A DNA stretch of 15,806 nucleotides, from IMG/VR virus record IMGVR_UViG_643348547_000009; one strand, given 5' to 3'. Positions 12,218 through 15,806 of this stretch are shown piece by piece. The position numbers and the translations under genes were made by a program. The notes under the pieces were generated by a model. That model was not told the origin of the DNA and ran no database searches. It was given only the letters and a program-made list of their open reading frames with translations. How positions within the stretch are numbered: position 1 is the first letter of the stretch; each line of letters begins with the position of its first letter. This DNA is from a virus. Its lineage: Duplodnaviria; Heunggongvirae; Uroviricota; Caudoviricetes.

Positions 12218-12445
12218 TTATTCTCCGGTGTGCTGCGCTTTATTATTCTCGTGAATTGCCATCACTGTATTTAATTCATTAATAACAGGCGTTAATAGCG
12301 TACGCACGGCAGAAAACATCATTGAATCAGATTCATCGCCACTTTCCGGCACATCAATTAACTTAAGTAGTAATGCGTCCATTTCCTTTGCGCGGATTAA
12401 TGCGTTTTCAGAATGAACAAGAACATCAAAGGGTATTTTATGCAT
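12218..12445 (-). CDS. Hypothetical 75 aa protein
   Basis: ATG at 12445 preceded by AGGGGGGGA; start overlaps the last codons of the upstream Icd-like ORF (ATGCATAA). The longer 109 aa reading in the ORF track has no Shine-Dalgarno. Confidence 0.5.
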   Translation of the reverse strand: MHKIPFDVLVHSENALIRAKEMDALLLKLIDVPESGDESDSMMFSAVRTLLTPVINELNTVMAIHENNKAQHTGE

Positions 12446-12902
12446 GACTCCCCCCCTGGCGAATACGGGCGACAAAAATAAGATGTGCGTGCGGCAGCTG
12501 TGCACGTGCTTCGCGCTCAGTGGCAGCGGTAACGGTGAATATTGCAATACTGTCTGTCAGGCACTGCATAAAGCGCCAGACAAAATAAGGGCGTGCGAAT
12601 ACAGCCATGTGAAAGGCTCCCAGATGAATTTTAAGGAGTCTCGCTACTACGCTGCTAAACATGGTGGCGAGACGTAACAGGGTTAGCAGACTGGTCATCT
12701 GGAAACCAGCGAGCACAAAGGCTCCCCCGTTACGCCCCGCCATAATGCGGGTATGGGTAGGTTTACGGACACAAAAAAACCGCTTATCGGATGTGGGCGG
12801 CTGTCCGCCAGATGTATTCAGGCTGCTAAACCCGGTCGCCATGTGGGCGACGGGGGAAGCATACAGCCCCGTGATAATTTTTTGCAAGCGGTTTTTACGC
12901 AT
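12438..12902 (-). CDS. Icd-like (P4 cell-division-inhibitor family) domain protein, copy 1; full ORF is 154 aa, and an internal start at 12608 would give 56 aa
   Basis: C-terminal WRF...ATEREARAQ...FVARIRQGGSHA is paralogous to the C-terminus of copy 2. The ATG at 12902 has an AGGGG Shine-Dalgarno and overlaps the copy 2 stop; the ATG at 12608 has a GGGAG Shine-Dalgarno. Confidence 0.45.
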   Translation of the reverse strand: MRKNRLQKIITGLYASPVAHMATGFSSLNTSGGQPPTSDKRFFCVRKPTHTRIMAGRNGGAFVLAGFQMTSLLTLLRLATMFSSVVARLLKIHLGAFHMAVFARPYFVWRFMQCLTDSIAIFTVTAATEREARAQLPHAHLIFVARIRQGGSHA

Positions 12903-13098
12903 GATGTGACCCCTGACGAATACGGGCGGCGAATACCATCACGCAGCCAGCCGGGGATTGCTGGCGTGCCTCCTGTTCGCTGGTGGCCTCAATGGTAATC
13001 ACGCGCGGTTGTGCCGTGCTCAGGGCGATAAAACGCCAGATGTATTTATTCAGGTTGTGCGAATCCCGCCCTTGCGGGTGTGTGGTATGATTTAACAT
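12895..13098 (-). CDS. Icd-like small protein, copy 2 (67 aa)
   Basis: ATG at 13098 with GAGG 5 nt upstream; ...KYIWRF...ATSEQEARQQ...FAARIRQGSHHA. The long upstream in-frame extension (353 aa ORF) is Cys/Arg-rich and antisense to plus-strand genes, so it is treated as non-coding. Confidence 0.5.
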   Translation of the reverse strand: MLNHTTHPQGRDSHNLNKYIWRFIALSTAQPRVITIEATSEQEARQQSPAGCVMVFAARIRQGSHHA

Positions 13099-13192
13099 AG
13101 CTACCTCGATACTTTCGCTATCGTTGGTGGTTAGAAGCCCCGTTACTGCTCCTACAGTGCGGGGTTTCGTCGTTTCTACACCTTGCCTTAAT

Positions 13193-13249
13193 AAGGTGTT
13201 GAACACCAATTTAAATCGAGGTGTTAAACACGTCAAGTGTTGAACACTT
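13193..13249. promoter_or_regulatory. Three palindromic operator-like sites GTGTT-N-AACAC in the divergent control region
   Basis: GGTGTTgAACACC at 13195-13207, GTGTTaAACAC at 13221-13231, and the perfect 15 bp site AAGTGTTgAACACTT at 13235-13249; centres are spaced 25 and 16 bp apart. Confidence 0.55.
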
Positions 13250-13268
13250 ATTTTTTTTCCTGCATACT
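13240..13268 (+). promoter_or_regulatory. Candidate sigma70 promoter for the plus-strand RHH gene, overlapping operator 3
   Basis: TTGAAC at 13240-13245, a 17 bp spacer containing a T8 run, and CATACT at 13263-13268, about 30 nt upstream of the ATG at 13298. Confidence 0.3.
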
Positions 13269-13297
13269 GCATTTGTTTTTTATGAAGGGTGCTCAAC

Positions 13298-13477
13298 ATG
13301 GCGACAAAAGCAGTAAACGCAAAATCACAAACAGTTGCGGCAAGGGTTCCACATGAAGTTATGAACAATGTTGAGGCGGTAAAAATGCCCGGCGAAAGTA
13401 CAGGGCAGTTTGTTACAGCTGCATTAAAGCGGGAAGTTGAATACCGCCAGCGTCGCAAGGCCAAAGAATCAGAATAA
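13298..13477 (+). CDS. Small ribbon-helix-helix-like DNA-binding protein (59 aa), candidate island regulator
   Basis: ATG at 13298 (the ORF track starts at an upstream GTG at 13289); AAGGG 9 nt upstream. The pattern ARVPHEVMNNVEAV...GESTGQFVTAALKREV fits a beta-strand, helix, helix (Arc/CopG-like) layout. Confidence 0.5.
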   Translation: MATKAVNAKSQTVAARVPHEVMNNVEAVKMPGESTGQFVTAALKREVEYRQRRKAKESE

Positions 13478-13534
13478 TCACTATCAGCGCCGTGGCGTGA
13501 GGTACTCCGGCGCATTGCTTTACAGGTCAGTACT

Positions 13535-13744
13535 ATGAGCAAAAAACACCGATCAGCAGATGAGATTTTTGCAGAACAACGAAGATTGCTTTTGCAAAGT
13601 ATCATTTCACGCCAGCAAGAGAAGGCGCGAGCTAAACAAATGCCACCAAATACAGAACCAGCGCCTACAAGATTTGCGCTTGATGACTTTCTCGATAAAC
13701 ACCCCAGGGTAATGAAAGCAAACAAAAACCGCCCACCAGGCTGA
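13535..13744 (+). CDS. Hypothetical 69 aa basic protein, second gene of the plus-strand module
   Basis: ATG at 13535 with a weak Shine-Dalgarno; co-directional with the RHH gene and followed by a strong terminator; no family recognised. Confidence 0.35.
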   Translation: MSKKHRSADEIFAEQRRLLLQSIISRQQEKARAKQMPPNTEPAPTRFALDDFLDKHPRVMKANKNRPPG

Positions 13745-13839
13745 TCACATTGCCCACCAGCCTGATAGCGGCTATCATCCCCGTGCTTATGTTTGAGATC
13801 ACACACACAAACGGCGCAGCGGGTTATCTGTTCAGAAAG

Positions 13840-13870
13840 GCGGCTCCATTTCGGGGCCGCTTTTTTTATT
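13840..13870 (+). terminator. Rho-independent terminator of the plus-strand module
   Basis: GCGGCTCC-atttc-GGGGCCGC (8 bp stem with one G-U pair) followed by TTTTTTTATT. Confidence 0.6.
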
Positions 13871-14013
13871 CCTGAAAAACCCCAATTTTGTTGTTTTTCA
13901 GTTTCACCAGGGCGAACGAATCCCCGCCCACGTTCTGGCGTATATTCAATCTTCATGGTTATAGCTCTGTGTTCAGATGATTGATGTGTGGCGGCTGCGT
14001 GCCGCCAGCGTGA

Positions 14014-14202
14014 TTAATGAACTGCCTTGCAGCTATCCTTCCAGGCCAGAACCTCGGATAAAGACCAGCCAACGGAACGACCGCCAAGTTTACGACGTGA
14101 TGGGAATTGTCCGGCCTTTTCCAGGCGGTAGCGACACGTACGGCTAAGGCCGGTTAGTTTTTCGCATTCTTTTTCACGTATAAACCGATCAGTGCTTAAC
14201 AC
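14014..14202 (-). CDS. alpA: AlpA-family phage transcriptional regulator (62 aa)
   Basis: HTH segment LTGLSRTCRYRLEKAGQFPSRRKLGGRSVGWSLSEVLAW typical of the AlpA family; GTG start at 14202 with an AAGGGGG Shine-Dalgarno 5 nt upstream; immediately downstream of int. Confidence 0.8.
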   Translation of the reverse strand: MLSTDRFIREKECEKLTGLSRTCRYRLEKAGQFPSRRKLGGRSVGWSLSEVLAWKDSCKAVH

Positions 14203-14576: not shown

Positions 14577-15806
14577 TTATTTTCTTCTGGCTACTGGTAG
14601 CGTGGTTACGTTTTCATGTGTTCCCGCCAGTATCCCTAACCGCTCCGTCCACATATCCAGCGCATTGCGTTTAGCATCCAGATAACGGGAATGATTATAA
14701 ACTCGCTGCATTCCTGGCATCTGGTGGCCTGTAAGCTGCTCCACGACGTGAGGATCCACGCCTAAATCGCTCAGCATCGTTGTAAAGGTGCGCCGGATGT
14801 CATGTAGTGACCAGTGAGGGTGATTTAGCCTCCTGTGCGCTAATCTGCCGTACTGCGACACGCTTGTTTCCTGTTTCACTTCCCCCAGCAATAAGCCCGT
14901 GTGCCTGTTCTGCTCCACCAGCTGCGTGACGAACGGCAGTATTGCTTCCGGTATGGGCCGGAATATTGCCACCTTCGTTTTGCTGTGTTCTTTCGGCACG
15001 GTCCAGAGCATTTCGGTAAAATCCCACTCGCTGATCTCCGATAACCTCAGTTCTACCGTCCGGCATCCGAACACAATCAGGAGGCGGATTAACGCGATGT
15101 AGTAGGGGGAGAATATTTTTTTGTCCAGTGCCTGCAATAATTCGCCCAGTTCTTTGGTGCTTAAGACACGCTCGCTTATATCCGGTTTTTTCCCAACGTC
15201 CGCCACACTCATATCATCAAGAACGTTGCTGATTGCATAGCGCCGCCTCCGGCAGAACTTAAGCGCCTGTTTGCACGTCTGTAGCAAGAATCCGGCAGTA
15301 ACAGGCGTTCGCTTTGCCACCTGGTCAAAACAGGCCAGCCAGTGCCGTAGCTCGCATTTATCCAGCGGCATAGCACCAATGTGCTGTATTACGTGATTAT
15401 TAAGGCGCTTTTTCAGGGCGGCATAATCCACGCGGTTTTCCTTTGCGTACGACTCAAGCCAGTAGGTGAGCGCATCGCCAACCGTTACCGGCTTTAACGC
15501 TTCCTGTACGGTGTAATTAAGCTCATGACGTGGATTTTTCCCCTCTGCCAGCCATGCGCGACACTGGGCGGCTTTTTCCCTGGCTGATTTCAGGCTCAGA
15601 TCAGGATAATTTCCCAGCTTAATGCGTTCCGGTGGTGCCCCCCTTCCCGTTCCGGCCCTGTAAGTGAAATACCAGGTTAAAAGGCCACTGGTTGAATGCC
15701 TGACGCTCAGGTTTCCACCGTCATTAAGAAAGGCTGTTTTTTGGGCGGGTGTGCCGTTGATTTTCCTCAGCTGTGTATCGCTCAGTTTGTTAAGTGCTCT
15801 GCTCAT
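14577..15806 (-). CDS. int: Site-specific tyrosine integrase, P4-type (409 aa)
   Basis: ATG is formed by the last three bases of the window. N-terminal arm-binding-like domain, and a C-terminal catalytic region (...HDIRRTFTT...YNHSRYLD) consistent with the tyrosine recombinase R/H/R/Y arrangement. Confidence 0.93.
   Translation of the reverse strand: MSRALNKLSDTQLRKINGTPAQKTAFLNDGGNLSVRHSTSGLLTWYFTYRAGTGRGAPPERIKLGNYPDLSLKSAREKAAQCRAWLAEGKNPRHELNYTVQEALKPVTVGDALTYWLESYAKENRVDYAALKKRLNNHVIQHIGAMPLDKCELRHWLACFDQVAKRTPVTAGFLLQTCKQALKFCRRRRYAISNVLDDMSVADVGKKPDISERVLSTKELGELLQALDKKIFSPYYIALIRLLIVFGCRTVELRLSEISEWDFTEMLWTVPKEHSKTKVAIFRPIPEAILPFVTQLVEQNRHTGLLLGEVKQETSVSQYGRLAHRRLNHPHWSLHDIRRTFTTMLSDLGVDPHVVEQLTGHQMPGMQRVYNHSRYLDAKRNALDMWTERLGILAGTHENVTTLPVARRK

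Follow-up and report, generated by a model that had tools for sequence, protein, structure and literature searches.

A candidate repressor-operator switch nested in a stop-free antisense frame of a capsid-forming phage-inducible chromosomal island

The 15,806-nt viral sequence IMGVR_UViG_643348547_000009 (hereafter the window, meaning this whole stretch of DNA) is an EcCIEDL933-type capsid-forming phage-inducible chromosomal island (cf-PICI) of E. coli; phoQ (1-1461) flanks it on one side and roxA on the other. Downstream of its alpA gene lies a short rightward cassette encoding a ribbon-helix-helix (RHH) protein and a small basic protein, here called ORF2 (Table 1). Our analysis favors, at a probability of roughly 60%, a type-specific repressor-operator switch that sits on a genuine rightward transcription unit and is embedded in an anti-termination open reading frame (ORF) of the opposite strand. 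The cassette is probably an undescribed off-switch of these islands and not a toxin-antitoxin pair.

Two plus-strand ORFs followed by a strong terminator, in a unit convergent with alpA and int, had been described in an initial annotation made from the sequence letters alone. Both points are borne out: the coordinates are as described, the terminator hairpin folds at z = -5.1, and alpA lies on the minus strand. The same annotation read the pair as either a repressor or immunity module or an antitoxin with its toxin; our results support the former and leave the latter unsupported. It had overlooked three operators, an adjacent C4 antisense RNA and an eta-like, stop-free antisense frame. The cassette does not stand in free DNA, as it lies wholly within that 353-codon minus-strand frame.

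The RHH protein and its candidate operators

The RHH protein is real, and its family and fold are supported. The protein scores 59.7 bits against the NCBIfam model YlcI_YnfO_N (NF041551; cut-off 30, E = 2.1e-16) and also matches phrog_949. Structure prediction, which the initial annotation had proposed as a check on both proteins, returned a strand-helix-helix model (AlphaFold2, predicted local distance difference test score, pLDDT, 84) with the topology of the Arc/MetJ/CopG superfamily: an N-terminal strand, two helices and a G-x-S/T/N turn before helix 2. In an alignment of 44 RHH homologues from Escherichia, Salmonella, Klebsiella, Serratia, Pectobacterium, Proteus and Xenorhabdus, a G-E-S turn is invariant. 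No sequence homologue of the RHH protein with a solved structure was found, and a tblastn search for it in a phage collection gave no match. Relatives differ in what fills this slot, with RHH types numbering at least eight and ORF2 types at least five. RHH types 2-5 score 59-72 bits against the YlcI/YnfO model and types 6-8 only 12-20 bits, under the cut-off; Pfam DUF3950 matched type 5 alone and not the RHH protein of the window. The residues that vary with type (11-15) coincide with the predicted beta-strand.

Three GTGTTnAACAC palindromes lie within 13195-13249, upstream of the RHH gene, and the window holds three exact copies of GTGTTNAACAC where 0.45 would be expected. The covariation of such palindromes with RHH type is the main evidence that the protein binds them. 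Each type has a repeated motif of its own: RHH1, the type in the window, is accompanied by three copies of GTGTTGAACAC, RHH2 by CTGGATTCCAG and GTGGAATCCAC (three copies in all), RHH3 by three copies of GTGTCAGCCAC, RHH5 by three copies of TGTGCGCACA and RHH8 by two copies of GGTAATTACC. The beta-strand sequence SKKLEAR is paired with GTGTCAGCCAC in E. coli, Xenorhabdus and Proteus alike. One natural swap is especially compact: in locus L002, both flanks match the window at 98.8% identity, yet the stretch corresponding to 13139-13443 has been replaced, taking the operators and the N-terminal two-thirds of the RHH protein together. Because operator and RHH covary in this way, the RHH protein would bind these sites, and we infer that it acts as a type-specific repressor.

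The placement of the palindromes is consistent with such a role. A scan for consensus promoters predicted a leftward promoter (P_left), which would drive the icd-like gene, the C4 RNA and the primase, and a rightward one (P_right) for the cassette itself. Five YlcI-class types share this arrangement: each has a leftward TTGAC(A/G)-N17/18-TAnnnT match with one operator in its spacer and one at its start site, and a third operator on or beside a rightward promoter match. These five types also bear on the possibility that the cassette is an accessory "moron", in which the RHH protein would only autoregulate a self-contained unit that carries ORF2 as its payload (for instance, a rapidly evolving peptide directed at phages or modulating the host), with the cassette taking no part in the island switch. 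We consider this unlikely, as operators in the spacer and at the start site of a conserved leftward promoter match speak for control beyond the cassette, and as the RHH gene keeps the slot without ORF2 in Salmonella, Xenorhabdus and Proteus, so that the RHH protein, and not ORF2, is the conserved element. The moron reading would nonetheless accommodate several observations, namely a unit with its own (predicted) promoter and terminator, an ORF2 that is highly diverse with named members all from Escherichia/Shigella, as for an arms-race gene, and, in RHH types 6-8, operators close to the RHH start in loci where the leftward promoter match was not found. It also fits a preprint in which the slot downstream of alpA in cf-PICIs is described as a variable region with a gene of unknown function (10.1101/2025.02.11.637232).

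Control of the kind proposed for the window resembles in its layout that exerted by Mnt at immI of phage P22. At immI, the RHH repressors Mnt and Arc act at the divergent promoters Pant and Pmnt; a small, autoregulating RHH repressor, with a palindromic operator that overlaps the promoter under its control, is transcribed divergently from that promoter. In phage P1, the region equivalent to this immI-type repressed operon comprises c4 RNA, icd and ant. Stl-type repressors are larger and are not known to be RHH proteins; the role proposed here, that of a divergently transcribed repressor of a replication module, is like theirs. Stl/Rpr of Gram-positive phage-inducible chromosomal islands (PICIs) and the pathogenicity islands of Staphylococcus aureus (SaPIs) act as divergent master repressors that silence the replication module (PMC6092414). 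YlcI (prophage DLP12) and YnfO (prophage Qin) of E. coli K-12 are uncharacterized small prophage proteins of the family to which the RHH protein of the window belongs (DUF3950/NF041551). The K-12 genes differ from the RHH gene of the window in lying in lambdoid prophages beside a terminase small-subunit gene, not between alpA and a primase operon, and in having no long open antisense frame; ylcI is listed as being in convergent transcription overlap with ybcW (PMC12288877). In the literature searched, we found no report of an RHH protein tied to Gram-negative PICIs or P4-like satellites.

Three further sequences were noted around the operators. An operator-like sequence with one mismatch (GTGCTTAACAC, 14192-14202) overlaps the GTG start of alpA and is probably a coincidence, because loci with other RHH types encode an identical AlpA protein. 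The leader of the predicted leftward transcript holds a hairpin, CCCCG-N17-CGGGG (13139-13166), whose stem shows compensatory changes among loci and which is followed by a T-rich run on the plus strand. Finally, a 12-nt inverted repeat (92% complementary; 13265-13276 and 13304-13315) flanks the Shine-Dalgarno sequence and start codon of the RHH gene and could occlude translation initiation on the RHH mRNA.

Table 1. Positions of the cassette, its control region and the neighboring leftward features in the window.
Feature	Position	Strand	Remarks
C4 antisense (immunity) RNA	12660-12747	-	Rfam RF01695, 72.7 bits
a1/b1 target of C4 RNA	12815-12864	-	RF03163, 45.5 bits, just below the gathering score of 46.7
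icd-like ORF	12895-13095	-	66 aa; NCBIfam phage_ICD_like 1.4e-19; phrog_6196 4.9e-44; in frame at the 3' end of the long frame
eta-like stop-free frame	12895-13956	-	353 codons; whole cassette antisense inside it; 3' end is the nested icd-like ORF
Operator O1 (GGTGTTGAACACC)	13195-13207		just downstream of the P_left -10, at about +1
P_left (TTGACG-N17-TAAATT)	13208-13236	-	predicted by consensus scan; position equivalent to P4 PLE
Operator O2 (GTGTTAAACAC)	13221-13231		within the -35/-10 spacer of P_left; equal placement in five YlcI-class types
Operator O3 (AAGTGTTGAACACTT)	13235-13249		overlaps the -35 of the cassette's own predicted promoter
P_right (TTGAAC-N17-CATACT)	13240-13268	+	predicted
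RHH gene	13298-13477	+	59 aa, YlcI/YnfO family; ATG start; Shine-Dalgarno GAAGGG 8 nt upstream
Conserved hairpin (GCGCCG...CGGCGC)	13487-13514	+	within the RHH-ORF2 spacer
ORF2	13535-13744	+	69 aa, small, helical, basic; conserved FAL(D/E)xFL motif
Intrinsic terminator	13834-13867	+	14-bp hairpin then T7; -21.7 kcal/mol, z = -5.1
alpA	14014-14202	-	Pfam Phage_AlpA 5.4e-17; directly upstream of and co-directional with the long frame
int	14577-15806	-	island gene

The stop-free antisense frame and its likeness to P4 eta

Opposite the cassette, one minus-strand frame is open from the stop codon of alpA to the icd-like gene. It contains no stop codon, versus 22 in each of the other two minus-strand frames. 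That frame is likewise uninterrupted in each of 19 E. coli/Shigella loci surveyed for it, as well as in Salmonella, Klebsiella and Proteus; nearly all of the approximately 25 relatives examined have it stop-free, far more than chance would give. In an E. coli element with two cassettes in tandem (L014), it runs open for 1.6 kb across both, as part of a 602-aa ORF. Over stretches that are non-coding on the plus strand, shuffled sequences hold 3-13 stops versus none observed (P(0) <= 0.035 in each of nine loci), and when the plus-strand genes were resampled synonymously, the combined P(0 stops) was 10^-6.4. The first ATG of the long frame lies 58 nt downstream of the alpA stop in the window; in L001, a strong Shine-Dalgarno sequence and an ATG follow the alpA stop by only 11 nt, and such a start occurs in some relatives.

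An open frame this long invites the reading that the plus-strand ORFs are shadows, with the minus-strand gene alone being real and the RHH likeness fortuitous. Its persistence in nearly all loci would fit, as would the NCBI Prokaryotic Genome Annotation Pipeline (PGAP) and published maps, which often show only the minus-strand gene here. Moreover, the minus-strand frame shares its third codon positions with both plus-strand ORFs, and period-3 variation by itself therefore cannot tell the frames apart. The residues changed do discriminate for the RHH gene: between L011 and the second cassette of L014 (L014b), 25 of 26 differences across it fall at third positions, altering one residue in the plus frame and eight in the minus frame. 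Four pairs show 7, 1, 1 and 2 changes that are synonymous in the plus frame and non-synonymous in the minus frame; no RHH pair shows a change of the opposite kind. BLOSUM62 scores at RHH columns are 0.88 higher in the plus frame (confidence interval 0.64-1.14). By this substitution pattern, the coding strand of the RHH gene is the plus strand.

Other evidence points the same way. The RHH protein matches its hidden Markov model with a supported fold, and RHH sequences unrelated to one another all read as RHH on the plus strand. The operators covary with the plus-strand protein, Shine-Dalgarno sequences and terminators are in plus orientation, and the minus-strand translation has no family match except at its icd-like end. 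K-12 ylcI, furthermore, exists without a long antisense frame. We rejected the shadow reading for the RHH gene on the substitution pattern, the fold and the K-12 copy, and regard it as extremely improbable.

What the minus strand appears to preserve is openness itself. Across the RHH gene, the amino-acid sequence of the long frame is not conserved, and in the N-terminal part of the frame that is free of plus-strand overlap few substitutions are available for a test of selection. Over the RHH gene, then, the frame needs only to stay open, with little constraint on its amino-acid sequence. Public annotation of the slot is inconsistent: some records show two plus-strand genes, others a 247-aa antisense "hypothetical" protein (WP_001304194.1, the minus-strand gene annotated in the slot in O157:H7), and still others a pseudo "Icd-like, missing C-terminus" gene (an example of the slot is L003 2698-3441).

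The organization of the leftward region recalls vis-eta/kil of satellite P4. According to the passage of PMC10111431 that cites Forti et al. 1999, the AlpA homologue vis is translationally coupled to eta, and eta holds a constitutive early promoter as well as kil, nested in frame inside it. The same passage states that translation of eta on late transcripts prevents termination and so allows escape from CI-RNA immunity. In both P4 and the window, an AlpA/Vis homologue is followed directly by a long ORF with an internal early promoter (predicted in the window), the long ORF ends in a small one nested in its frame (kil in P4, the icd-like ORF in the window), and a C4/CI-type immunity RNA and a primase lie downstream. 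P4 eta differs in its length (~200 codons) and in having neither an RHH gene nor ORF2 opposite it. The long frame of the window is an eta analogue by organization, not a demonstrated member of the Eta family, and anti-termination by its translation is assumed here by analogy with P4.

Together, the C4 RNA and its target form a P1/P4-type RNA immunity unit inside ORFs annotated as Icd-like. Complementarity of the C4 RNA to other parts of the minus-strand transcript was limited to 8-mers, about chance by a rough estimate. An isrK match was also seen upstream of the C4 RNA (12660-12864 region, minus strand). A 154-aa ORF (12438-12902, minus strand) contains the C4 RNA, and its Icd-like match is limited to the last ~45 residues (107-149); the ORF has the look of a second icd-like unit in which the upstream part codes for RNA and not for protein.

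ORF2 and the layout of the rightward unit

A pairing of RHH gene and small partner gene could also be read as a type II toxin-antitoxin system, with the RHH protein as antitoxin and autorepressor and ORF2 as a small toxin that stabilizes the island. Type II RHH antitoxins (ParD, TacA, HicB, MazE4 and CopG-type proteins) do share the RHH fold, small size and upstream palindromes with the window protein. They differ from it in carrying a toxin-binding extension: only ~10 residues of the window protein lie beyond the RHH fold, with no space for a toxin-binding domain. Toxin features are likewise missing from the partner, as ORF2 has no match in Pfam, NCBIfam, PHROGs or PADLOC (no toxin or defense family), and its AlphaFold2 model is not globular (predicted template modeling score, pTM, 0.38). 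Nor are the two genes inherited as cognate pairs. Any ORF2 type may be found with different RHH types and with either RHH tail class, a free reassortment. Other genera can do without the partner: the RHH gene stands alone in Salmonella, Xenorhabdus and Proteus and lies beside an unrelated 84-aa ORF in Klebsiella. The toxin-antitoxin reading was rejected on fold, family, covariation and distribution, and we judge it very unlikely.

As far as its sequence indicates, ORF2 would instead be a co-transcribed accessory protein. Among 1.84 billion proteins, its family forms 124 clusters at 90% identity and 27 representatives at 50%, and all named members inspected, strain ED1a included, are from Escherichia or Shigella. 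After a variable N-terminal helix, members share the motif (R/K)FAL(E/D)xF(L/V)xK, often followed by YPRRLKxxKNRPPG. The model places a helix at residues 8-35, a short amphipathic helix on the motif (48-55) and a disordered basic tail. ORF2 most likely acts by protein-protein contact, through the FAL(D/E)xFL helix, on a partner that is not type-specific.

ORF2 is very probably a real gene. Its start context (AGG-N8-ATG) is conserved at a fixed 57 nt past the RHH stop. Substitutions within its motif are conservative in the plus frame (L/V/I, CTT/TTG Leu) and in the minus frame read R/T/I/K, and BLOSUM62 scores at ORF2 columns favor the plus frame by 0.67-0.83 (confidence intervals not including 0). 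Two points count against this assignment: the BLOSUM62 test used alignments guided by plus-strand translations, and the synonymous/non-synonymous counts (58 vs 44, from non-independent pairs) favor neither frame. Those counts are uninformative about the strand of ORF2 because third codon positions coincide in both frames, and the BLOSUM comparison and the codon pattern of the motif were used in their place.

Every Escherichia/Shigella locus examined has the RHH and ORF2 genes paired in the interval from alpA to the icd-like gene. The spacer between the two paired genes (13478-13534 in the window) is exactly 57 nt in 12 of 12 modules and near-invariant in sequence, although the genes on either side differ in type; with this fixed length, the two plus-strand ORFs are always in the same frame. 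The stem of the conserved spacer hairpin is longer on the plus-strand RNA owing to G.U pairs. The spacer may act as a joint for recombination, as an RNA element or as a binding site for a protein. At the far end of the unit, none of 200 shuffles folded as stably as the intrinsic terminator, which a simple consensus scan did not list. Among relatives, two unrelated types of hairpin plus T-run occupy the position after ORF2, in plus orientation.

A box, CATTGCCCACCAGC, directly follows the ORF2 stop codon (13752-13766) and marks a boundary of mosaic modules. It contains a minus-strand Chi site (13754-13761), and the Chi octamer is kept among box-bearing loci even where adjacent bases vary. A copy of the box with one mismatch (13731-13745) encodes the C-terminal ..RPPG of ORF2. 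The box is absent from L012 and L014. The tandem arrangement in L014 (512-1756) consists of two complete RHH-plus-ORF2 cassettes of different types.

Proposed mechanism and island setting

The ORFs, the RHH fold and family, the operator/RHH covariation, the stop-free frame and the terminators were all computed here. From these we infer DNA binding, promoter activity, repression, anti-termination and any role of ORF2, and we propose that they combine as follows. Rightward transcription would start from the promoter near 13240-13268, pass through the RHH gene and ORF2 and end at the terminator. In the quiescent island, RHH protein bound to O1-O3 would shut P_left, and with it the icd-like gene, the C4 RNA and the primase operon, and by occupying O3 it would limit its own synthesis; this dual effect is suggested by the location of O2 in the P_left spacer, O1 at the start site and O3 on the -35 of the cassette's own promoter. 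The bound protein may also stand in the path of read-through transcription from alpA, and the rightward RNA, stopped by its terminator, may oppose read-through from int and alpA.

Upon induction, the helper phage would turn on alpA, and translation of the alpA transcript would continue through the eta-like frame. By analogy with P4, ribosomes on such alpA-driven transcripts could keep Rho from terminating them, so that the transcript would reach the replication genes and bypass C4-RNA immunity.

Several observations weigh against a switch of this kind. In published work, the induction of Gram-negative PICIs is explained by AlpA activation alone, and AlpA overexpression induces EcCICFT073 (PMC6092414); as AlpA overexpression suffices, any RHH block must be bypassable. 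P_left and P_right are consensus matches and are predicted only. In RHH types 6-8, the interval from the operators to the leader hairpin holds no leftward promoter match, and the promoter-occlusion geometry is thus not universal. In Xenorhabdus, the open part of the antisense frame is confined to the RHH gene and operators, and L029 has three stops in its best frame over a longer span. Similarity between the long frame and P4 Eta is not significant (BLASTP E = 0.22-0.32), consisting of a weak, positionally congruent match of the two C-terminal ends.

A more far-reaching version of the proposed switch is possible, though we hold it only tentatively. The RHH protein could be the missing master repressor of Gram-negative PICIs and cf-PICIs, with swappable RHH/operator types forming immunity groups. 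The RHH gene and ORF2 would then be obligately antisense to an eta-like ORF selected only for translation, as an anti-polarity spacer, and ORF2 would couple the switch to either the helper phage or the product of the icd-like gene.

On this broader version, a repressor gene, the operators it acts on, two promoters, a terminator and an opposite-strand open reading frame would all share a single stretch of DNA. The nested two-strand arrangement is a new combination of two known kinds of element. It offers a concrete candidate repressor with defined operators and natural specificity swaps, as well as a natural example of two-strand coding in which one strand apparently needs only an open frame. 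It bears on how satellites are kept silent and induced, on the annotation of these loci and on the debate over antisense overlapping genes in bacteria.

DNA like window positions 13100-13900, which cover the control region and the cassette, is present in 1309 of 5426 complete E. coli genomes. An AlpA-based scan of genome contigs yielded only three loci, and an ORF2-based scan of viral contigs also three. The gene content of the window fits a capsid-forming island of the EcCIEDL933 type, with Pfam matches for int, alpA and primase and for the island's own capsid, protease, portal, connector, HNH, TerS and TerL proteins. A PerC homologue accompanies this complete head and packaging set, and no tail or lysis genes were seen among the window ORFs scanned. 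The order after alpA is icd-like gene, C4 antisense RNA, DUF4222 gene, D5-type primase and SSB gene; these, together with int, alpA, the PerC homologue and the head and packaging genes, are all on the minus strand. Between phoQ and the terminase genes are two more plus-strand ORFs, of 76 and 97 aa (1670-1900 and 1957-2250), that match no Pfam family; they qualify the description of the cassette in the initial annotation as the only plus-strand coding unit in the island.

Chi sites (GCTGGTGG) are abundant in the window: 14 occur across its 15.8 kb, seven per strand, as against 0.46 in dinucleotide shuffles (positions, for example, 1727, 5879, 6883, 7011, 7378, 9255, 9563, 9589, 10868, 11129, 11982, 12979, 13754 and 14915). 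The mean density in E. coli is roughly one site per 4-5 kb, making that of the window several-fold higher. This excess may reflect selection to shield the linear or concatemeric DNA of the satellite from RecBCD.

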